Translations under genes and position numbers: made by a program | The notes under the pieces: generated by a model | The model's input: only the letters and a program-made list of their open reading frames with translations | Told to the model about the DNA's origin: nothing | The model's database searches: none | In this document: in pieces, positions 1,666 through 51,600 of the stretch | Layout: the number at the start of each line of letters is the position of its first letter | Position numbering within the stretch: position 1 is the first letter of the stretch | Source of the DNA: a virus | Virus record (IMG/VR): IMGVR_UViG_3300027749_000049 | Coordinates: 1 to 64,000 of that record | DNA: 64,000 nucleotides | Direction: 5' to 3' (one strand)

Positions 1666-4029
1666 TTATCTGCTTCTCCTCCAGCAAACTCTTTGATTTA
1701 TAATAATTGGGGTAGTTATTCAGCAGGTGGATGGTCATCTACTGGATCAGTCGGTCAACCTTTATCAGCATTCGCATTTATAGCATTCTATGAAACAAGT
1801 CTTATTGATTATATAGGTACTGCTGGATCTACTGGAAATGCTGCTAGCTTCTTTACCGGTCTTGCAATTGGTGATAAGATCCAACTTTATTATGTTGACG
1901 GCACCGGCTACGGTATTTACAATGTAACTTCAACTGCTTCACTTTCATTAGGTATGTATACAATTGGTGTTTCAGTTATATCTACTACTGGCACTGTTCA
2001 AGCTAAAAATATGACTGTGTCATATGTAGTTAGCGGAACTTCCGGTACTGCTGGTACGTCAGGTTCATCTGGTACTTCAGGAACACGTGGTACTTCAGGT
2101 ACTTCCGGTACATCAGGTTCAAACGGTTCTTCAGGAACAAGCGGTACATCTGGCGCAAACGGTGCTAACGGTTCTTCAGGAACAAGTGGAACATCAGGTT
2201 CTTCAGGTTCTAACGGTTCAAATGGCTCAAGTGGTACTTCAGGAAGTTCAGGCTCAAATGGTTCTAATGGTTCTTCCGGAACTAGCGGAACCTCAGGTTC
2301 AAGCGGTAGTTCAGGAACATCAGGAACCTCCGGTTCAAGCGGAACCGCTGGAACATCAGGAACGTCCGGTAGTTCAGGTTCTAACGGTTCTAGTGGAACA
2401 TCAGGTTCTAATGGAAGCTCTGGCTCAAATGGTAGTTCAGGAACATCTGGTACTTCTGGAGTAAATGGAGCTAATGGTACATCAGGCACAAGTGGTACAT
2501 CAGGTTCTTCAGGGTCAAACGGTTCTTCTGGTTCAAGCGGAACTTCAGGTTCTAGTGGATCAAACGGAAGCTCGGGATCAAACGGAAGTTCTGGTACCTC
2601 AGGTAATACCGGTTCTTCTGGAACTTCAGGTTCGAGCGGATCGAATGGCTCAAACGGTTCAAGTGGAACTTCTGGTTCTAGTGGCTCAAACGGTTCGTCG
2701 GGAACATCAGGTTCAAGCGGATCGAATGGTAGTTCTGGAACTTCAGGTTCTTCAGGCTCAACCGGCTCTTCAGGTACAAGTGGAGTTTCTGGTGCATCAG
2801 GTACGTCCGGCACCTCTGGAACAAGTGGTACTTCAGGTACGTCCGGGTCAAACGGTTCAAGCGGAACTTCGGGTACATCTGGAAGCTCAGGTAATACTGG
2901 TTCTTCAGGAACTTCAGGCTCAAGTGGCTCAAACGGTTCAAGTGGAACTGCTGGAACATCAGGTTCTAATGGTTCAAGCGGAACTTCAGGAACATCAGGA
3001 GCTAATGGAGCTAATGGTTCTTCTGGAACAAGTGGTACCTCTGGAGCAAATGGAGCTAACGGTTCGTCTGGAACAAGCGGAACTTCAGGTGCAAATGGTG
3101 CTAATGGAACAAGTGGAACTTCAGGTGCAAATGGAGCTAATGGAACAAGCGGAACTTCTGGAACTTCAGGTGCAAACGGTTCAAGTGGTACTTCAGGTGC
3201 AACTGGAGCTAACGGTTCTTCTGGAACTTCAGGAGCAAATGGTGCTAATGGTTCAAGCGGTACGTCAGGCGCAAACGGAGCTAATGGTTCAAGCGGTACT
3301 TCAGGTGCAAATGGAGCTAATGGTTCAAGCGGTACTTCTGGATCTAGTGGAACTTCTGGAAGAGCTGGAGGAAATGGTACTGACGGAAGCTCAGGAACTT
3401 CTGGAGCAAATGGTGCTAATGGTACAAGCGGTACTTCTGGAGCAAATGGTGCTAATGGTACATCAGGCACAAGCGGTACTTCCGGTGCAACTGGTGGAAG
3501 CGGTTCTTCTGGAACGTCAGGAACACGAGGTACCTCTGGTACTTCAGGAACAAGCGGAAGTTCAGTAGTAATATCACTTACGGCTGGAAAAATTCCTAAA
3601 ACAAATACAGGCGGAGCAACCTTAACTGACAGTATTATTACAGAGGCTAGCGGAAAGATCGGAGTTGGAATTAGCCCAACCACTTATGTATTTGAAGTAG
3701 CTGGTGATATTTATGCTAGTTCTAATATTATTGCATATTCAGATCGATCAGTTAAAGATAATGTGAAGACCATCACTGATGCTCTAGATAAGGTAACATC
3801 AATGAGAGGCGTTACATTCACCAGAAATGATCAAAAAGATACGACACGGATTCATGCGGGTGTTATTGCTCAGGAAATGGAAATGGTATTCCCAGAAGTT
3901 GTATTTGAAAATGCGGATGGTACCAAGGCAGTTGCCTATCCAGCCCTTGTGTCGGTTCTAATTGAGGCAATCAAGCAACAGCAACACCAAATTGATGACT
4001 TAAGGGATCAAATTGAAAAATTATTATAA
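1..4029 (+). CDS. Tail fibre-like protein, 5'-partial: Gly-X-Y (GSS/GTS/GSN/GAN) repeats plus C-terminal peptidase S74 intramolecular chaperone
   Basis: Frame 1 is open from base 1 and continuous with the called ORF at 1693 (TTG in the same frame). Gly occurs every third residue over ~1-1665 and ~2032-3561. The C-terminus SDRSVKDNV...RGVTF...GVIAQE...VAYPALVSVLIEAIK plus coiled coil is the S74 chaperone signature. Confidence 0.88.
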   Translation, partial: SSGTAGTSGSSGSTGSSGTSGSNGSNGSSGTSGTSGSSGSSGLTGSSGTSGSSGSNGSSGTSGSSGTSGSNGSSGTSGTSGSSGSNGSSGTSGSSGSNGSSGTSGTSGSSGLTGSSGTSGSSGSNGSSGTSGTSGSSGSNGSSGTSGSNGSSGTAGTSGSSGSNGSSGTSGTSGSNGSNGSSGTSGSNGSSGTSGTSGSNGSNGSSGTSGTSGTSGANGANGSSGTSGSNGSSGTSGSNGSNGSSGTSGSNGSNGSSGTSGSNGSSGTSGSNGSSGTSGTSGTSGSNGSSGTSGSNGSSGTSGTSGSNGSSGSSGTSGSNGSNGSSGTSGSNGSNGSSGTSGTSGSNGSSGTAGTSGSSGSTGSSGTSGSNGSNGSSGTSGTSGSNGSNGSSGTSGTSGSSGSNGSSGTSGSSGSNGSSGTSGSSGSSGSNGSSGTSGSSGSNGSSGTSGSSGSNGSSGSNGSSGTSGTSGSNGSSGSNGSSGTSGSNGSNGSSGTSGSNGSSGTSGTSGSNGSSGSNGSSGTSGTSGSSGTSGTRGTSGTSGTSGSSGTSGTSGLSASPPANSLIYNNWGSYSAGGWSSTGSVGQPLSAFAFIAFYETSLIDYIGTAGSTGNAASFFTGLAIGDKIQLYYVDGTGYGIYNVTSTASLSLGMYTIGVSVISTTGTVQAKNMTVSYVVSGTSGTAGTSGSSGTSGTRGTSGTSGTSGSNGSSGTSGTSGANGANGSSGTSGTSGSSGSNGSNGSSGTSGSSGSNGSNGSSGTSGTSGSSGSSGTSGTSGSSGTAGTSGTSGSSGSNGSSGTSGSNGSSGSNGSSGTSGTSGVNGANGTSGTSGTSGSSGSNGSSGSSGTSGSSGSNGSSGSNGSSGTSGNTGSSGTSGSSGSNGSNGSSGTSGSSGSNGSSGTSGSSGSNGSSGTSGSSGSTGSSGTSGVSGASGTSGTSGTSGTSGTSGSNGSSGTSGTSGSSGNTGSSGTSGSSGSNGSSGTAGTSGSNGSSGTSGTSGANGANGSSGTSGTSGANGANGSSGTSGTSGANGANGTSGTSGANGANGTSGTSGTSGANGSSGTSGATGANGSSGTSGANGANGSSGTSGANGANGSSGTSGANGANGSSGTSGSSGTSGRAGGNGTDGSSGTSGANGANGTSGTSGANGANGTSGTSGTSGATGGSGSSGTSGTRGTSGTSGTSGSSVVISLTAGKIPKTNTGGATLTDSIITEASGKIGVGISPTTYVFEVAGDIYASSNIIAYSDRSVKDNVKTITDALDKVTSMRGVTFTRNDQKDTTRIHAGVIAQEMEMVFPEVVFENADGTKAVAYPALVSVLIEAIKQQQHQIDDLRDQIEKLL
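2032..3561 (+). repeat. Coding tandem repeat block 2 (GSS/GTS/GAN units)
   Basis: Same 9-nt periodicity, shifting to GANGANGSSGTS units after ~3000. Confidence 0.9.
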
Positions 4030-15583: not shown

Positions 15584-15595
15584 AAGGTTGTGGTG

Positions 15596-15959
15596 TGGAG
15601 ATAGGCGGAATCGAACCGCCGTCCAAAAAACCTCTAATTAAACTTTCATTTACACGCTTAGTCCATTTTTCTAATTGGACGAAATATCTTATTCTTTAAC
15701 GACTTAAAGCTAAAGTCAGTAACGGTTCGACTTGGCCGCTACGCCATGCTGGTTTTGCAACTTTGGTTAGTCAAGCAGTTGCCGCTTGGTCACTTATGCA
15801 GCTAAAAGCTCTTCAGTAACAGGAGTGTTAACGCCTTGGTTAACTAGGCTCCAGAAAGTAGTGTTGCCACTTATTGTTTGTAATACATTTTAACGAGTCT
15901 TAGCATCATCCTCGGCGTGCAAGCGTAACCGATAATCTTTGTCAAAACCGGTTATCCCC
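15596..15959 (-). ncRNA. ssrA: tmRNA (transfer-messenger RNA)
   Basis: 5' GGGGATAACCGGTTTTGAC; 3' T-arm GGCGGTTCGATTCCGCC then TATCTCCA. Acceptor stem has the G3.U70 Ala identity pair. Internal tag ORF at 15868-15794 reads GNTTFWSLVNQGVNTPVTEELLAA*. Confidence 0.95.
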
Positions 15960-25050: not shown

Positions 25051-25502
25051 TGGTACCAGTATTAACCTTTGGTCAAAGACAACAAGCAATGAAAGGTCTG
25101 CCTTTTTATGGAAGAGGCGACTTTAGTTTTGTGTCAAACCGTAGTGGTTTTACCAATGGTATATCAGTTCAGCTATTACCGTTATCCGATCTTTCGCTAC
25201 CTCAGCAAATTGAAGTTGACGATTTTGATCAAGAAATAAAGAAACTTAATAACCTATTTAAAAAAGGTTCACGTCTTGGTGGAGTAGTTGTTAACTCAAC
25301 CTTTAAAAACTCCAAAGGCAATCCAGATAGCATTATTGGAAAATTTGATAGTTTTAAAATCGATACCAAGCATAAAACAATTAGAGCATTCATTCGAGAT
25401 ACAAATTCAATGAAACTAGTTGAAGTTTACCCAGAGACTCTATCTAAACTAAATGAGTCCAATTCCCATCTAGCAAAAACCTTTCTAGAGTTTTTGATAT
25501 AA
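25050..25502 (+). CDS. Hypothetical protein with C-terminal LNE...KTFLEFL tag
   Basis: 150-aa ORF ending LNESNSHLAKTFLEFLI. Confidence 0.6.
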   Translation: MVPVLTFGQRQQAMKGLPFYGRGDFSFVSNRSGFTNGISVQLLPLSDLSLPQQIEVDDFDQEIKKLNNLFKKGSRLGGVVVNSTFKNSKGNPDSIIGKFDSFKIDTKHKTIRAFIRDTNSMKLVEVYPETLSKLNESNSHLAKTFLEFLI

Positions 25503-25522
25503 TTTAATAAACAAAGTATTTA

Positions 25523-26551
25523 ATGGCAGAAGACAATAACACTCCGAATGTGGAGGATGCAGCATTGGCCTTTTTAGAAAAGGAAGATGTAAAGTATGGT
25601 AAGAATACGAATAGCCCAATTGATTCCAACCCAGCTGAACCTGGATCTCCAATAAGTAGTTTAGGCCAAGCAATTTCGCTTCAACCTACTTCAACTGTTT
25701 CTGGAGCTAATGATAATTATTGGAAAAATATTCCATTAGCAAATTTACCATCAAGGGGTATGTTCTATGCAGAAGGTTCAGAATTAACAATTAGAGCAGC
25801 AACTGTTTCTGAAATTAGGCACTGGTCTACCATTGATGAATCCGATGTATTAGATATTGATGATAAGTTAAATTTTATTATTGAAAAGTGTACCCGATTC
25901 AAAATTAAAGGCGGTCAGTCTTGGTTAACTTGGAGAGATATTGCAGAAGTAGATCGTCTCTATATTATTTTCATAATTCACGAAATTACTTTCCCTGAAG
26001 GCCAAAATGAACTTTCCACAAAACTTGAGTGTACTCAAACCTGTGCAGAAGATGGAGGTTGGTCAGATGATGTTAAAGTTAGAAGTAGCATGTTACAATT
26101 ATTTGATATGCCTGAAGAAATTAATCAATGGTATTCTGCACAATATCGTTGCTTTGAAGTAGTTTCTCCAAAACTAAATGAGACCTTTTATTTGTATATG
26201 CCAACTCTTGGTGTAATTGAAAGACTTCGTAAACGAATTTCTGAAGCCAAATCACAGAGTAAAACAATTGATAAGTCATTTATTAAAGTTGCTCCATATC
26301 TTGTACAAGATTGGTCAAAATTCGGTCAACCTGAATATGCAGCAAGTCAATCTGAAACTTTTAATTGGCACCTTAATAAATTTACATTTGTTACTAAGTT
26401 TGCTGAACTAATGCAAGGTTCAAGAGAAAGTGTCTTAACTACTGTCTGCCCTAAATGTGGATCAACATTATCCAGTTCAATTTTTTCGTCAGACAGCTTC
26501 ACGATCAAAGATCTTTTCCTTATTTCAGGTAGACTTAATGAACTTATTTGA
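25523..26551 (+). CDS. Baseplate hub assembly protein / tail chaperone (T4 gp26-like)
   Basis: LPSRGMFY motif and Cys pairs (CTQTC, CPKCG). Confidence 0.65.
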   Translation: MAEDNNTPNVEDAALAFLEKEDVKYGKNTNSPIDSNPAEPGSPISSLGQAISLQPTSTVSGANDNYWKNIPLANLPSRGMFYAEGSELTIRAATVSEIRHWSTIDESDVLDIDDKLNFIIEKCTRFKIKGGQSWLTWRDIAEVDRLYIIFIIHEITFPEGQNELSTKLECTQTCAEDGGWSDDVKVRSSMLQLFDMPEEINQWYSAQYRCFEVVSPKLNETFYLYMPTLGVIERLRKRISEAKSQSKTIDKSFIKVAPYLVQDWSKFGQPEYAASQSETFNWHLNKFTFVTKFAELMQGSRESVLTTVCPKCGSTLSSSIFSSDSFTIKDLFLISGRLNELI

Positions 26552-45329: not shown

Positions 45330-46408
45330 ATTCCGTATATTGCAGAAATTGCAGCATAGTTTGAATTTGAAATTGCATTGACTGCCCCGGTTGCTGTTGC
45401 TTGGTCATAATACCCATAAGCTTTAAATCCATAAACTCTGGTAGTGGTTGCATGGGTTGGAGAAACAACAGATTCGCATAGCGTAAGATCTGGAATTGTT
45501 GAACTCGCTAGAGAACCTGTACCAGATAGCACACCGCCGCCAGCATTGTGACCGTTTATATAAAGAGTGGCTTGGCCTGGATCATCGAATCCAGTTGGAA
45601 TATGTGCAGCAATATGAAATATACCAGTGGTAACTAGAGCACCTGCCCAGCTAATAGTAAAGCCTCCAGATTTCATAATAATGTTTCCGCTACTGGCGAT
45701 AATTGAAATACTATCAGTATGAGTACCTACTAAATAATTTTCGGTTCCATCTTGATAAAATACTCCTTCTACCGCTAACGATTCATTAAATGAACCACCT
45801 GCAGCATTTTTAAAAGCACCTAGCCTTAAACTACCGTTGCTAACTGATCTAAAATAACCTACAAAACTTCCAGCTGCTGGAGCTGTAAATGCACCATCGG
45901 TTGCCCTAAAAATATTTTGTGAACCTCCAGCAACTAAATCATAAACATATGAGTCTGTTCCTGGGTAACTTGCTAAGAATCCTAATTCAAGATTTACTGC
46001 GCATTCAGTATCTAGTAAATATTCAGGATAGTGTGTGTTAACCAACATGTATTTACCAGTACCAATTAGCCAGGCAATTGCGGTTGCATAATCTGCAAAT
46101 AATTCGTAATTATTTGCTGATCTTTCAGGTAAACGACTAATTAATTCAATAATATCTGGTTGAGATTGACCACTAATCCAGTGAATTGATGGTTTTGCTG
46201 CTGTTTGAGTATCAACTCCGCGGCTGTAAGTGTCTGTATAAATTACAGTGTTGGTTGATGGGTTAATACCCGCTCTCCAATTATTATTGGTTAGAGTAGT
46301 GTAGTCTTTTTTAACGGTCCCTAATGAAACTGGGCCGAAATTAACGGAATCCCTGTTTGGTTTAGATAACCCGTTGTAACATACTGGGTTAATGTAATTT
46401 ACTGCCAT
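45326..46408 (-). CDS. Putative virion surface protein with LamG/ConA-like domain
   Basis: SYPGT...DL and FHIAA...LYING motifs; shares an N-terminal module with 12626..14059; TATTTAT at 46432. Confidence 0.55.
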   Translation of the reverse strand: MAVNYINPVCYNGLSKPNRDSVNFGPVSLGTVKKDYTTLTNNNWRAGINPSTNTVIYTDTYSRGVDTQTAAKPSIHWISGQSQPDIIELISRLPERSANNYELFADYATAIAWLIGTGKYMLVNTHYPEYLLDTECAVNLELGFLASYPGTDSYVYDLVAGGSQNIFRATDGAFTAPAAGSFVGYFRSVSNGSLRLGAFKNAAGGSFNESLAVEGVFYQDGTENYLVGTHTDSISIIASSGNIIMKSGGFTISWAGALVTTGIFHIAAHIPTGFDDPGQATLYINGHNAGGGVLSGTGSLASSTIPDLTLCESVVSPTHATTTRVYGFKAYGYYDQATATGAVNAISNSNYAAISAIYGI

Positions 46409-46481
46409 AATGTATAAAAATTATTTTAAGTTATTTATTTAGCCAAATTTTAGATTTTTTGAAAACCTTTTTTGCTAACCA

Positions 46482-46520
46482 TGATATAATAAATAGACTT
46501 TACAATAATCGTTCTTTAAT
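46482..46520 (+). promoter_or_regulatory. Promoter (TGnTATAAT overlapping ATAAATA) and boxA-like element upstream of the ncRNA
   Basis: TGATATAAT at 46482-46490, ATAAATA at 46489-46495 and CGTTCTTTAA at 46510-46519. Confidence 0.6.
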
Positions 46521-46523
46521 TTA

Positions 46524-46925
46524 CGTTGGAAAAACCTGATAGGAAGTCATGAGCCTTTCAGGAGTATGTGCCAGAACAACCTGATTGTAAAACAGGTAAT
46601 GGTTTAGATTAGGAGGATGCTCCGCAAGTATTGGCTGAACGGTCAACTTGAACCAGTTAACCGCTGGAGTCTAAGGTTTTGATATCCATATATGGTATTT
46701 TGCAATCGGCATACGGGTATAAAATAGTCCCGTTAAATGGCTGAATAATCCTTTGCTAGGTGGGATAAAGCACTCGTACTGTTGTGGTTAACACGATAGT
46801 GATTCAAGCGGATCCAACTTGCTTTGAGTCGACTCTGACAGGAGTGTACGAAGGTTGTCGTTATAACGCAAGCTCAGCATCAAATTGGAGGTAAACCCTA
46901 CCCCTCTCATACGTTTTTTCCGACG
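46524..46925 (+). ncRNA. Unassigned ~400-nt highly structured non-coding RNA
   Basis: No ORF of 60 aa or more and higher GC than the flanks. The ends pair (CGTTGGAAAAA/TTTTTCCGACG), with many internal helices whose G.U pairs fit the + strand. Flanked by a promoter and a terminator. Confidence 0.75.
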
Positions 46926-46930
46926 ATACC

Positions 46931-46963
46931 AAGGCTAGCCGTAAAAAAGCTAGCCTTTTTTTT
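46931..46963 (+). terminator. Rho-independent terminator
   Basis: AAGGCTAGC-loop-GCTAGCCTT followed by a T run. Confidence 0.85.
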
Positions 46964-46988
46964 GTTTACAGAGTATAATAATATTATT

Positions 46989-47213
46989 ATGGGATTTAAC
47001 AAATTTTTTGTACCTGAACCAGCCGAAGTTGCTAGACAGGTAAAATTAAACGGGCCGACTCAATTTATTAATCGTAAAATTGATGCAATAATCGGTAATT
47101 CAACTAGTATTGATATAATGGATCATATTTATGAAAGGTCACAAACTGGCCAAACTGATGATCAGATCCTAAAAAGTCTAGTCAAAAAATTTCCGGTGTA
47201 TTTTAATGCCTAG
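46989..47213 (+). CDS. Hypothetical protein
   Basis: ATG at 46989 (MGFNKFF), just after AGTATAAT at 46972. Confidence 0.6.
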   Translation: MGFNKFFVPEPAEVARQVKLNGPTQFINRKIDAIIGNSTSIDIMDHIYERSQTGQTDDQILKSLVKKFPVYFNA

Positions 47214-47496
47214 TCCAGCCAGAGCAAAAGAGGTTTGTTTACTAACGGTTGTCACTGGAGAAGCCCAAACTCATCTATGCGTTATTGGTACCTTTAGGGG
47301 AGCCTATAAACTTGCACTATTTGAGGCAGCTATTTCTTTTCCAAATTTAACAGAGCGTGCAGCTCAGACCCTAATGAATCAAACAGGCGCAGTTAAACTT
47401 TGGGATACCAAAAAGTTTGCATATGAAGAAGAGGCCAGGTGGTCGCCAGTTGGAAAGATAATTTCAGTCTGTAAAGTTCCAGTAAAACACACATAA
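47206..47496 (+). CDS. Hypothetical protein
   Basis: 96-aa ORF ending at a terminator. Confidence 0.55.
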   Translation: MPSPARAKEVCLLTVVTGEAQTHLCVIGTFRGAYKLALFEAAISFPNLTERAAQTLMNQTGAVKLWDTKKFAYEEEARWSPVGKIISVCKVPVKHT

Positions 47497-48463: not shown

Positions 48464-48817
48464 ATGAAAGATATTATTGACTTGGGCAATCTAGTATTTA
48501 ATCAGCTAGTAAAATCACATGGGGAACTTGAAGAGTCTAGGACCCTGTTTCTTTATGGAATCACAGTTGGTTCAGATTGGCAAGTATTGGGTTCAGTAAA
48601 GGTCGTAATAATTGACCAAACTGGAGTATCAATTAATTTTGAAGATCAGATAATTACTGATGTAAACAGTCAATGGAAACAAATAATTACAAATCGCCAA
48701 GGAGTTAAAGCAGCCGCTGAGCTTTCAAAAATAAAATCAAATACTAAACAATTTAAGGACGGGGAAACCTATGAATTTTGGCAAAATGAAGGTCCTTGGA
48801 GAGAAATAAATTTTTAA
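48464..48817 (+). CDS. Hypothetical protein
   Basis: 117-aa ORF 5 nt after AGTATAAT. Confidence 0.6.
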   Translation: MKDIIDLGNLVFNQLVKSHGELEESRTLFLYGITVGSDWQVLGSVKVVIIDQTGVSINFEDQIITDVNSQWKQIITNRQGVKAAAELSKIKSNTKQFKDGETYEFWQNEGPWREINF

Positions 48818-50316: not shown

Positions 50317-51600
50317 ATGAACAACCTCGATAACCAATATCAAAAACTCCTAACTGACATTTTAAAGAATGGTGTCTATAAGTCTGACCGAACTGGTACA
50401 GGAACTCTATCAGTATTTGGAAGACAAATCAGACATAAAATGTCAGAAGGCTTTCCTTTACTCACAACTAAGAAGATGGCATTTAAAACTATTGTAACTG
50501 AATTGTTATGGTTCTTAAAAGGTGATACTAATATCAAGTTCTTAGTTGATAACGGATGTCATATTTGGGATGGTGATGCATATAAGAATTATGAAAAGAC
50601 CGTTAAGCTATCAATTGATAAAGCTACTGACGAGGGTATACTTAAAGAGGCAACTGATTACAATATTCTAAGTAAAGAAGGATTTATTGAACGTATTAAA
50701 ACAGATGATGAGTTTGCTAAAGAGTGGGGTGATTTAGGCTTAATTTATGGTAAGCAATGGAGAAGTTGGAGCCGAAACGCAACTCGTGATGAGAAAATAG
50801 TTGACCCTGGTGTTTATACAAAACAAATAGACCAAATCGCAAACCTAATCAACGACCTTAAAACAAATCCAGACTCAAGACGATTAATGGTTAATGCTTG
50901 GAATGTAGGTGAATTAGACCAAATGGTTCTTCCTCCTTGTCATTATGGATTTCAAGTTTATACAAGAGAGTTGAGTTGGGAAGAAAGAGAAGACTATGGT
51001 TATAAGATAAATATAGATGGAATATTAACAAAAGAATGGGCTGACAAGTTACGTTTACCGACAAGAGCAATCTCTTTAATGTGGAATCAACGTTCAGTAG
51101 ATACATTCTTAGGGTTACCATTCAACATTGCATCTTATGGCTTATTGTTAGAGATCATTGCTACTGCAGTTAATATGGTTCCCGATGAATTGATTGGTAA
51201 TCTAGGTGATGTACACTTGTATTCAAATCATATTGAACAAGCAAAAGAACAGATCGGTAGAAAATATGACCATGAAGAAAGGGAGACCATGCTAAAAGAT
51301 GCAATGAGCTGGCATTTGTATAACAAAGCGGTTAACGAATTGATGCCATTTGGTGGAGGTATGTCTGAGTATTATGATGCTCACAAAATTCCTTATCGAA
51401 CAAGAGCACCTTATCCGTTACCTTCTCTAAATATCAATACTGAATTTTGGCCTAGGGAAACTGAAGACGGTCCAATAAATGCAGTCTCAGTATTTAATAA
51501 TTTCCCTGATATTTATTTTTGTAAATGTTTGTTGGAAGAAGATATTCAGTTAGCTAATTATCAATCTCACCCAACCATTAAAGCACCTTTATCTAATTAA
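50317..51600 (+). CDS. thyA: Thymidylate synthase
   Basis: DRTGTGT, FPLLTTKK, YGKQWR, LPPCH, QRSVD.FLGLPFNIASY and HLYSNH. Confidence 0.96.
   Translation: MNNLDNQYQKLLTDILKNGVYKSDRTGTGTLSVFGRQIRHKMSEGFPLLTTKKMAFKTIVTELLWFLKGDTNIKFLVDNGCHIWDGDAYKNYEKTVKLSIDKATDEGILKEATDYNILSKEGFIERIKTDDEFAKEWGDLGLIYGKQWRSWSRNATRDEKIVDPGVYTKQIDQIANLINDLKTNPDSRRLMVNAWNVGELDQMVLPPCHYGFQVYTRELSWEEREDYGYKINIDGILTKEWADKLRLPTRAISLMWNQRSVDTFLGLPFNIASYGLLLEIIATAVNMVPDELIGNLGDVHLYSNHIEQAKEQIGRKYDHEERETMLKDAMSWHLYNKAVNELMPFGGGMSEYYDAHKIPYRTRAPYPLPSLNINTEFWPRETEDGPINAVSVFNNFPDIYFCKCLLEEDIQLANYQSHPTIKAPLSN

Follow-up and report, generated by a model that had tools for sequence, protein, structure and literature searches.

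Positions 46524-46925 of an uncultured freshwater phage encode a single RNA chain of ~402 nt that contains two cores of the manA type (RF01745). The two cores are not independent; they are manA folds fused by swapping strands, and they have the P1 hairpin, the pseudoknot-type helix and the outer closing helix in common, with one copy of each. The RNA represents a known family in a new arrangement, not a new class. On balance, we consider it probable that it is a stand-alone RNA gene with two strand-exchanged manA cores and a structural role, predicted to be a hard-wired dimer. The window analysed here comprises 64,000 nucleotides (positions 1 to 64,000 of IMG/VR record IMGVR_UViG_3300027749_000049), and near-complete relatives of the phage have genomes of ~250 kb.

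Assignment to the manA family

An earlier note, made from the sequence alone, had described an ORF-free, GC-richer block holding an RNA that was either unassigned or GOLLD/ROOL-like. The block is as described, with no ORF of more than 41 aa overlapping 46482-46963 and a GC content of 0.39–0.44 inside versus 0.28–0.29 just upstream. The class is a different one, as a covariance-model search detected manA twice in tandem, at 46537-46743 (47.5 bits) and 46712-46915 (34.9 bits), with significant E-values per record (2e-12 and 1e-8). Each match spans model positions 1-192 with the helix order P1–P9 kept, and the two matches in the phage record compare with none in 14 control genomes.

Both scores lie below the curated gathering cut-off of RF01745 (55.2 bits), hence a default Rfam scan is empty. 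The earlier note had held that confident assignment to a known family would remove novelty, and the assignment is confident by E-value but not by score. Furthermore, cmscan reports only the best among overlapping matches, so the first scan showed one core only; the same rule may explain why each clade 2 locus (see below) gave one match. Relatives G020–G022 have two manA matches apiece at 40–54 bits, also below 55.2, and single-core metagenome RNAs carrying the core 2 P2 motif obtain 36–62 bits against RF01745, hence sub-cut-off scores are usual for manA in environmental DNA.

Besides manA, Rfam gave no match at E < 2 across 46350-47050. RNase P, of which short pieces had seemed recognisable, GOLLD, ROOL, OLE and group I/II introns had no match there at E up to 10, nor any at the gathering cut-off in the whole window, and the RNase P resemblance finds no support. 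GOLLD, ROOL and OLE are likewise large ornate RNAs, often phage-borne, and differ from the present RNA in size and helix plan. ROOL and GOLLD form multimeric cages.

The RNA shares with manA the helix order, the three-hairpin P4 domain, the GGGUA...UCCC P9 hairpin, the GUGGU and UAACC loops and an occurrence in phages and aquatic metagenomes. The P2/P3 motif CUGAAUAA...UAAAG is exact in core 2, where GCUGAAUAAU...AUAAAGC matches single-core metagenome manA RNAs exactly; the corresponding internal loop (CUGAAUAA ... UAAgG) is present in core 1 as the variant CCAGAACAA...GGUAAUGG. In contrast to manA, there are two cores per chain, served by a single P1 and a single pseudoknot-type helix, a closing helix is added, the P8 strands cross between cores, each core has one complementary loop, and the scores are below the cut-off. 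It also lies between promoter-like boxes and its own terminator instead of in a 5' UTR, and in a large freshwater phage instead of a T4-like cyanophage.

Fold, covariation and layout

Folding of the + strand gives -132.7 kcal/mol (z -2.75, 0/100 shuffles as good), versus a z of -1.05 with 15/100 shuffles as good on the - strand, in agreement with the strand read earlier from G.U pairs. In the alignment of seven homologues, two-sided changes are seen at 42 of 126 pairs and 97.9% of cells are paired, a result that none of 500 shuffles equalled, while slid controls were 37–45% paired. The covariation asked for in the earlier note is hence found, and it backs the manA-local helices P2–P7 and P9 (Table 1).

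Table 1 Features of the double-core manA RNA and its flanks, in window coordinates
Feature	Position	Strand	Support or remark
Promoter-like boxes AAAACC, 17 nt, (GA)TATAAT	46462..46490	+	both conserved in homologues
Leader box GTTCTTTAA (boxA-like)	46511..46519	+	GTTCTT invariant in 7/7 homologues
H0, outer closing helix	46524-46534 with 46915-46925	+	11 pairs, 2 with two-sided changes; 98.6% of cells paired
P1 hairpin (CCTGAtAGG/CCTtTCAGG)	46535..46562	+	7/9 pairs covary
P1 loop, 10 nt	46544-46553	+	self-complementary UCAUGA, invariant in 7/7
Pseudoknot-type helix (GTATG/CATAC)	46564-46568 with 46908-46912	+	3/5 pairs covary; 100% paired
Core 1, manA P2-P7	46570..46674	+	cmscan alignment; 97-100% paired, 13 pairs covary
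Core 1 P2/P3	46570-46603	+	
Core 1 P4, around three hairpins	46604-10 with 46668-74	+	
Helix A (P8 strands, core 1 x core 2)	46678-46683 with 46879-46884	+	6 pairs, 2 covary; 100% paired
Core 1 inner P8 hairpin	46684..46698 (46684-87 with 46695-98)	+	read by eye
Helix B (core 1 3' P8 strand x core 2)	46707-46711 with 46856-46860	+	97.1% paired
Core 1 P9-type hairpin GGGUA...UCCC	46713..46733	+	invariant except for one-sided changes
Core 2, manA P2-P7, GCUGAAUAAU...AUAAAGC	46740..46853	+	covariance-model alignment and covariation
Core 2 P4, around three hairpins	46773-79 with 46846-53	+	all 7 stem pairs covary
Core 2 stretch: helix B 3' strand, 18-nt linker, helix A 3' strand	46856..46884	+	
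Core 2 P9-type hairpin	46887-46907	+	pair support in seven-sequence alignment
Intrinsic terminator: 9-bp stem, 9-nt loop, 8-T run	46931..46963	+	read from sequence
Promoter-like motif AGTATAAT	46972-79	+	outside the RNA, ahead of the 74-aa ORF
74-aa ORF	46989-47213	+	outside the RNA; no Pfam or PHROG match

Several helices proposed from the single sequence hold on the seven-sequence alignment, namely the closing helix, CCTGAtAGG/CCTtTCAGG, ACCTG/CAGGT, TTAGATT/AGTCTAA and GGAG/CTCC. ACTGTTGTG/CACGATAGT and GATTCAA/TTGAGTC also hold, with one-sided changes only, as does ACGGG/CCCGT, which is invariant and hence uninformative. The long-range GTATG/CATAC pairing stands with the distal CATAC at 46908-12, whereas pairing with the internal CATAC at 46710-14 does not hold. 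TTGGCTG/CAGTTAA, GCTGA/TCAGC and CACTC/GAGTG were unsupported; together with GTATG and the internal CATAC, these helices are 86% paired with one covarying pair, which is not above shuffles.

The P9-type hairpin of core 1 doubles as P1 of core 2 in the alignment of the manA model. The inner P8 hairpin of core 1, misaligned by MAFFT and so left out of the formal pair count, reads AUAC/GUAU in most sequences, ACUUC/GAAGU in L014 and AAUAC/GUAUU in L342, with one C-U mismatch in the window's own copy. The 18-nt linker of core 2 forms at most a weak 3-bp hairpin (46860-62/46871-73), given by RNAalifold only and poorly supported. A four-way junction that would include a second inner P8 hairpin was considered and dropped, since this hairpin has 3 bp at most in the window and is missing from clade 2. 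GGAUCC in the P6 loop of core 2 was rejected as a second palindrome, its G residues being paired in the stem.

Strand exchange between the cores

In manA, the P8 stem forms within one core. Here the P8 strands pair across cores as helices A and B, with 97–100% of cells paired and with covariation, versus 59% of cells and no covariation for the intra-core alternative. The manA pseudoknot, in which a strand before P2 pairs with one after P9 of the same core, is also replaced: core 1 contributes the 5' strand and core 2 the strand downstream of its P9 to the sole pseudoknot-type helix, while the inter-core linker finds no partner. In helix B, one of the five pairs covaries, one has a one-sided change and one is U-U in L342, so that its support consists of few changes.

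A second clade of 16 metagenome sequences, very different from the first, has the same strand exchange. RNAalifold alone, applied to this clade, independently yields the same three long-range helices, with 99.2% of cells paired and 34 of 86 pairs covarying, a level reached by 0/500 shuffles. Five of eight pairs covary in its helix A and two of six in the counterpart of helix B.

The RNA has diverged less than the genes around it, which points to selection: compared with L008, it is 96% identical (387/402), versus 73% DNA and 66% protein identity for the upstream gene. Among 50,697 cultured-phage records, blastn found nothing that matches the region. A junction-pattern search returned 55 stretches, of which 11 are family members, and a manA search of 29 records from these stretches found two matches each in three and none in 26. 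The matchless records include ~20 loci that resemble a conserved coding gene, a chance match to the pattern. Two loose DNA patterns (nhmmer, 298 loci) added no further family member among the matches listed.

Flanking signals and expression

The -10 box TATAAT (46485-46490) is kept in six of seven homologues and reads TATAAA in L014. The preceding TG and the overlapping ATAAATA, which had been taken for early plus late expression, are not conserved, the stretch being deleted in L025 and L015, and the double promoter finds no support. The AAAACC-17 nt-(GA)TATAAT pattern also occurs at 25476-25503, before an ATG at 25523, giving two matches in the window versus 0.24 expected. Exact copies of the leader box GTTCTTTAA number only two in the 64-kb window; at the RNA level (GUUCUUUAA), GUUCUU is invariant in 7/7 homologues, and the equivalent place in clade 2 is taken by GUUUUUUGACAAUUU. 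We take the box to resemble the boxA consensus, boxA being a leader element that is bound by NusB/NusE and renders transcription termination-resistant. The leader box may hold RNA polymerase processive on the untranslated RNA.

The terminator, also recognised earlier, starts 5 nt past the closing helix, and its stem is kept by compensatory changes with different sequences in L025/L015 and L014/L342. A promoter/terminator scan listed neither the promoter-like boxes nor the terminator described here; the latter was overlooked because its 9-nt loop exceeds the 8-nt limit of this simple scan. The terminator and AGTATAAT separate the RNA from the next ORF, hence it does not occupy the 5' UTR position of the cis-regulatory manA type. 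AGTATAAT also precedes, by 6–9 nt, the starts of three further ORFs of the window, and relatives of the 74-aa ORF make up only seven protein clusters. We read the RNA as a stand-alone gene with promoter-like boxes, a leader box and its own terminator.

Six metatranscriptome runs contain 24–31% of the words of a 1101-nt query. Four of them gave one contig each (46540-46924, 46584-46935, 46612-46898 and 46546-46926), with none over 46200-46532 or 46940-47300, an absence that is not proof of silence, and none beyond 46935. The RNA is hence present in RNA libraries without its flanks, in several studies; as contigs, these data carry no strand, true ends or level, and DNA carry-over is possible. 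Contigs of two runs end at 46924 and 46926, one continuing into adapter-like letters, which is a weak hint at the 3' end of the RNA. Library contigs confined to ~46540-46935 and covariation bear out the earlier proposal of a large structured phage RNA with its own transcription.

Alternative explanations

Since 2010, manA has had the status of an orphan “riboswitch candidate”, proposed to lie in 5' UTRs (Weinberg et al. 2010, PMC2864571), hence two cooperative manA aptamers might sense a metabolite and gate read-through of 46931-63 into the 74-aa ORF. The short distance from closing helix to terminator and the same-strand ORF beyond are compatible with such a tandem riboswitch, and terminated leaders too can be abundant in RNA libraries. 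We nevertheless regard it as very doubtful, since the covarying 11-bp closing helix seals the fold without overlapping the terminator, and reading the alignments revealed no alternative pairing to the terminator arm that is conserved and could serve as an expression platform; a lone GCUAG match to the arm, present in the window, has disappeared in L014. Between terminator and ATG, the ORF carries a AGTATAAT of its own, like three others, and L011 retains terminator, AGTATAAT motif and 74-aa ORF where the RNA is absent. RNA contigs never pass 46935, and the clade 2 loci examined have other surroundings: different ORFs downstream at locus L347, four of them without a Pfam or PHROG match, and a tRNA-Cys gene at two further loci. 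The tandem glycine riboswitch (cf. the abstract of PMC13648278) also places two homologous domains in contact within one transcript, but each aptamer has its own helices and the pair, together with an expression platform, is part of a 5' UTR, whereas in the double-core manA helices are exchanged and no platform was found.

An RNA acting in trans through proteins, as decoy, sponge or scaffold, with any RNA-only assembly being without a role, is a possibility to be taken seriously, if still an improbable one. Conceivable partners, of host or phage, are RNA-binding defence proteins, ribonucleases and transcription factors. Such a role would suit a stand-alone, highly conserved RNA present in RNA libraries, and the invariant single-stranded GUAUUUUGCAAU (~46695-46706) and the P1 loop could be protein sites, or equally RNA contacts. 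However, no partner is indicated, the neighbouring ORFs having no Pfam and no PHROG match, and single manA cores assemble protein-free in vitro according to preprint 10.64898/2026.07.01.735769. Finally, nothing apart from the sub-threshold Rfam scores would suggest a chance structure or a decaying, functionless remnant, a view to which covariation in two clades, a conservation exceeding that of the genes on either side and detection in the RNA libraries of several studies leave a negligible probability.

Proposed assembly and implications

The structural reading that we favour draws on the same 2026 preprint (10.64898/2026.07.01.735769), which reports that single manA cores self-assemble in vitro from RNA only, into decamers and 60-mer cages held by loop-loop contacts. 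The core fold family is the same, and its contact loops L5-L7', L8-L9' and the L6 GNRA loop, with numbering inferred from the text, match loops conserved here; the RNAs there are of less than 200 nt. On this basis, the phage RNA is probably a covalently hard-wired, strand-exchanged dimer of the self-assembling manA protomer, and would act as a structural RNA and not a switch. “Tandem” is absent from the main text of the preprint, and its abstract, section 7 and parts of sections 3, 8 and 13 contain no fused or strand-exchanged manA. In titles and abstracts of the manA papers found no double core is described, although supplements may list tandem manA RNAs; likewise, the article of Weinberg et al. 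(PMC2864571) applies “tandem” to other motifs only, and its additional files may differ.

The complementary loops of manA, L5 GUGGUG and L7 UAACCA, are divided between the cores, each of which keeps one only: core 1 has UAACC with GAUG as L5, and core 2 has GUGGUU with GACA as L7. Clade 2 shows the mirror arrangement of this GUGGU/UAACC split. As the letters are invariant, covariation is mute on the loop pair; as the pair is split between cores, the contact could be intramolecular or could join separate molecules head to tail. In the P1 loop, the invariant UCAUGA is self-complementary and could link two molecules. P1-loop palindromes occur in 7/7 clade 1 and 14/16 clade 2 sequences, and a palindrome of at least 6 nt arises in 6–19% of shuffled P1 loops.

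A bolder proposal, which we put forward tentatively and consider rather improbable, is that double-core manA RNAs are natural strand-swapped dimers mass-made by large phages for intracellular RNA-only shells or lattices, the geometry of which would be set by the split GUGGU/UAACC loops and the P1 loop. If true, it would provide the first demonstration of an RNA nanostructure at work in vivo, for example in host-factor sequestration or the shielding of phage molecules.

The Rfam cut-off hides double-core manA RNAs in routine annotation of large phages. The fused, strand-exchanged form occurs in two very different clades, with its own signals and in environmental RNA libraries, which argues that manA functions as a structural RNA gene and not a switch, and the double core offers a natural experiment on the wiring of protomer contacts.

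Identification of a tandem manA-like RNA

The virus record is 128 kb long (CheckV completeness estimate 46%), and the window is its first half, carrying phage genes for DNA ligase, UvdE endonuclease, thymidylate synthase and an amidase-type endolysin; among cultured phages, the best match to the ligase reaches only 32.5% identity. No ORF longer than 41 aa was found between a − strand ORF ending at 46408 and a + strand ORF starting at 46989, and GC content is 0.39–0.44 in this block versus 0.28–0.29 immediately upstream, in line with the ORF-free, GC-richer block described in the earlier note. Folding of the + strand gives −132.7 kcal/mol (z = −2.75, with 0/100 shuffles equally good), compared with z = −1.05 for the − strand.

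At gathering thresholds, Rfam detected only a tmRNA in the whole window. With E-value reporting, a scan around the block returned manA (RF01745), and a search of the whole record gave two full-length matches in tandem, while 14 control genomes gave none. The next-best Rfam family near the block had an E-value of 2.7, hence an unassigned or distant GOLLD/ROOL-type class, as first proposed, is no longer tenable. The scan suggested as a check on novelty thus gave significant E-values for a known family, although both window matches score below the curated cut-off of 55.2 bits. The 2010 description of manA (PMC2864571) drew on marine metagenomes, T4-like cyanophages and two gamma-proteobacteria, and cyanophage S-CREM1 is listed with a single copy of 215 nt and 100.6 bits (PMC9964418, Table 4). 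The window RNA differs from manA as modelled in its score and in lacking both an intra-core P8 and a pseudoknot in each core. We read it as a manA descendant that works as manA does. No description of the double-core layout was found among titles and abstracts of papers on manA.

Features of the RNA locus and of other window regions
Feature	Position (strand)	Details
RF01745, scan around block	46547–46738	44.3 bits
RF01745, first full-length match	46537–46743 (+)	47.5 bits, E 2.2e-12
RF01745, second full-length match	46712–46915 (+)	34.9 bits, E 1.2e-8
Promoter-like boxes	46462–90	AAAACC, 17 nt, TATAAT; both kept in homologues
Second copy, AAAACC-N16/17-GATATAAT	25476–25503 (+)	20 nt before ATG 25523 of a 342-aa ORF
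Closing helix	46524–34/46915–25	11 bp, encloses whole molecule; two pairs covary
Pseudoknot-type helix	46564–68/46908–12	GUAUG/CAUAC, 3/5 pairs covary; window G-C/U-A/A-U/U-A/G-C; L014 one C-G replacement; L342 A-U/U-A/A-U/C-G/A-U
Helix A	46678–83/46879–84	UUUGAU/AUCAAA; L014 UUUGAC/GUCAAA; L342 CUUGAC/GUCAAG
Helix B	46707–11/46856–60	CGGCA/UGUCG
Single strand in GUAUUUUGCAAU	46699–46706	Invariant or almost so in 7/7 homologues
3′ tail ACGAUACCAA	46926–46930	Invariant or almost so in 7/7 homologues
Terminator	46931–63	Stem kept across homologues with differing sequences
Promoter-like motif AGTATAAT after terminator	46972–79	9 nt 5′ of ATG of the 74-aa ORF
AGTATAAT, + strand positions	32938, 33790, 40421, 43556, 46972, 48451, 60734
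RNA contig	46540–46924	Depth 21
RNA contig	46584–46935	Depth 8
RNA contig	46612–46898	Depth 2.8
RNA contig, run X20	46546–46926	Depth 281; L025-type variant with 14-nt insertion
tmRNA, phage-borne	15593–15959 (−)	Rfam 111 bits; ARAGORN tag peptide GNTTFWSLVNQGVNTPVTEELLAA; TATAAT-like and TATAAATA-like boxes just upstream
Thymidylate synthase ORF	50317–51600 (+)	427 aa; Pfam match residues 6–319, profile positions 1–228/266 only; PHROG match 1–426

The partial Pfam match of the thymidylate synthase ORF seems to reflect an insertion of approximately 100 aa or more.

Conservation among related phages

Using the 74-aa ORF downstream as query, we recovered seven viral loci, six of which possess the RNA. 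The exception, L011 (73% protein identity; region 3440–4002), keeps the terminator, the promoter-like motif after it and the ORF; other, apparently coding, sequence is found in place of the RNA. Loci L025, L015, L014 and L342 were added by a junction pattern, nhmmer and one metagenome scan, giving seven distinct sequences in total. Three related virus records (G020, G021 and G022) contain exactly two manA matches each (40–54 bits), including the near-complete G021 and G022 (252.6 and 253.1 kb, 93–94% complete), and 26 other records reached via the junction pattern contain none.

Identity of the RNA to that of the window is 397/402 in L005, 387/402 in L008, 372/400 in L025, 350/400 in L015, 291/396 in L014 and 278/395 in L342. 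DNA of the upstream gene is only 73–74% identical between the window and either L005 or L008, and the downstream ORF falls to ~70% in L025 and L015, hence the RNA is more strongly constrained than its neighbours. The P6 hairpin in core 1 is longer in three lineages (L008, L025, L015) owing to a 14-nt insertion after window position 46637. The conserved 3′ tail and single strand could be processing or tertiary-contact sites.

Strand exchange between the two cores

The structure, an RNAalifold fold in which three poorly supported helices were replaced, has 126 pairs and was tested on the seven-sequence alignment of the window's clade (clade 1). In total 97.9% of cells are paired and 42 pairs show two-sided changes, neither value being reached in 500 shuffles; sliding partners by 1–3 columns gave 37–45% pairing and at most seven covarying pairs. 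The covariation among homologues on which the ncRNA call had been made to depend is therefore present. Approximately 15 G-U pairs in the window would become A-C on the other strand, which establishes the + strand originally called.

Local helices follow the manA fold, present twice, and every helix is nested. Three long-range helices are incompatible with two independent manA copies. Helix A joins the 5′ P8 strand of core 1 to the 3′ P8 strand of core 2, and in helix B the 3′ P8 strand of core 1 meets the 5′ P8 strand of core 2. A lone pseudoknot-type helix links the 5′ end of core 1 to the 3′ end of core 2. The P8 stems within single cores that the Rfam alignments would imply are paired in only 59% of cells, with no covariation. 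The closing helix was recovered as claimed; the long-range GTATG/CATAC pairing holds with the distal CAUAC but fails with an internal copy at 46710–14.

A metagenome pattern for P2 of core 2 matched at least 119 stretches. Twenty were run against Rfam, of which 15 had one manA match (36–62 bits, five above cut-off) and five had none; most look like ordinary single cores. A second P2-like motif lies 180–191 nt upstream in 22 of 119 among the matches listed, three of them from the window's clade, and downstream in none of those listed. An AT-rich metagenome group, clade 2 (L317, L326, L333–L335, L340, L344, L347, L351, L369, L378, L379, L381, L386, L388, L411, L418, L420, L423), was represented by a 16-sequence alignment with almost no sequence in common with the window beyond the manA signature. 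RNAalifold alone gave the same plan, with a GGGAU/AUCCC helix around both cores, helix A of eight pairs (five covarying) and helix B of six (two covarying, plus one one-sided change). Here 99.2% of cells are paired and 34 of 86 pairs covary (0/500 shuffles as high); the pseudoknot-type helix is invariant save for a G-C to G-U change. Since clade 2 shows the same exchange, the layout is old and conserved rather than a local accident. L340 and L333 each have a tRNA-Cys gene downstream of the RNA, at a distance of a few hundred bases.

In the Rfam manA consensus, loop L5 (GUGGUG) is complementary to L7 (UAACCA). In clade 1, UAACC is retained in core 1, where L5 is GAUG, and GUGGUU in core 2, where L7 is GACA; clade 2 has the reverse arrangement. 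Each double core therefore holds exactly one complementary pair, split across its halves, a complementarity without covariation because the letters never vary. The P1 loop is self-complementary in clade 1 (UCAUGA, 7/7) and in 14/16 of clade 2 (UAAUUA, GUAAUUAC or UUAUAA), the other two having GACG as in the Rfam consensus. Shuffled loops gave such palindromes in 5.7% and 18.7% of trials, and this self-complementarity, hexamer or octamer, is no more than suggestive.

Transcription unit and expression

The promoter-like AAAACC and TATAAT boxes upstream of the RNA are conserved. Neither the TG ahead of the −10 (TATAAT) nor ATAAATA, which overlaps it, is conserved among the seven homologues, and the claim of early plus late expression finds no support. 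The bipartite pattern occurs twice in the window versus 0.24 expected and may represent a promoter class of the phage. A leader box, in which GUUCUU is invariant in 7/7 of clade 1 and whose place is taken by GUUUUUUGACAAUUU in clade 2, may resemble boxA. The predicted terminator stands. Copies of AGTATAAT also precede the ligase and UvdE genes and the ORF at 48464, at 6–9 nt from each start; the window has nine matches versus 5.0 expected (nine reached in 6/100 shuffles). An mRNA starting at these four copies, 6–9 nt before ORF starts, would have almost no leader.

Parts of a 1101-nt query occur in 20 public runs. Fourteen of these are DNA runs with the labels freshwater, lake water or just metagenome, and six are metatranscriptomes containing 24–31% of the query's words. 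Contigs were placed for four metatranscriptomes, each of a separate study (one contig per run); none covers the flanks of the RNA, and one has adapter-like letters directly after 46924. Because cover is confined to the RNA in four studies, a discrete, stable transcript, as anticipated earlier, fits these contigs, which carry no strand, true ends or level and could formally include DNA carry-over. The 2010 description (PMC2864571) placed manA in 5′ UTRs and proposed it as a candidate riboswitch; for the window RNA this reading is weak.

A possible hard-wired dimer

In the available part of a July 2026 preprint (10.64898/2026.07.01.735769), single manA RNAs of <200 nt are reported from cryo-EM to assemble into decamers, into octamers and into an icosahedral cage of 60 subunits through kissing loops L5-L7′ and L8-L9′ or an L6 GNRA contact; tandem or fused forms are not mentioned in that part. 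By our inferred numbering, the GUGGU/UAACC pair would be the L5-L7′ contact. As single manA assembles in vitro and this contact may persist, the double core is read here as a hard-wired dimer of an assembling manA protomer. With P8 and the pseudoknot swapped, the halves would be unable to fold apart; one inter-protomer loop contact would be retained between them, the other loops being altered, and the palindromic P1 loop would be on hand for symmetric pairing. The outcome may be an assembly closed at the dimer or a new lattice.
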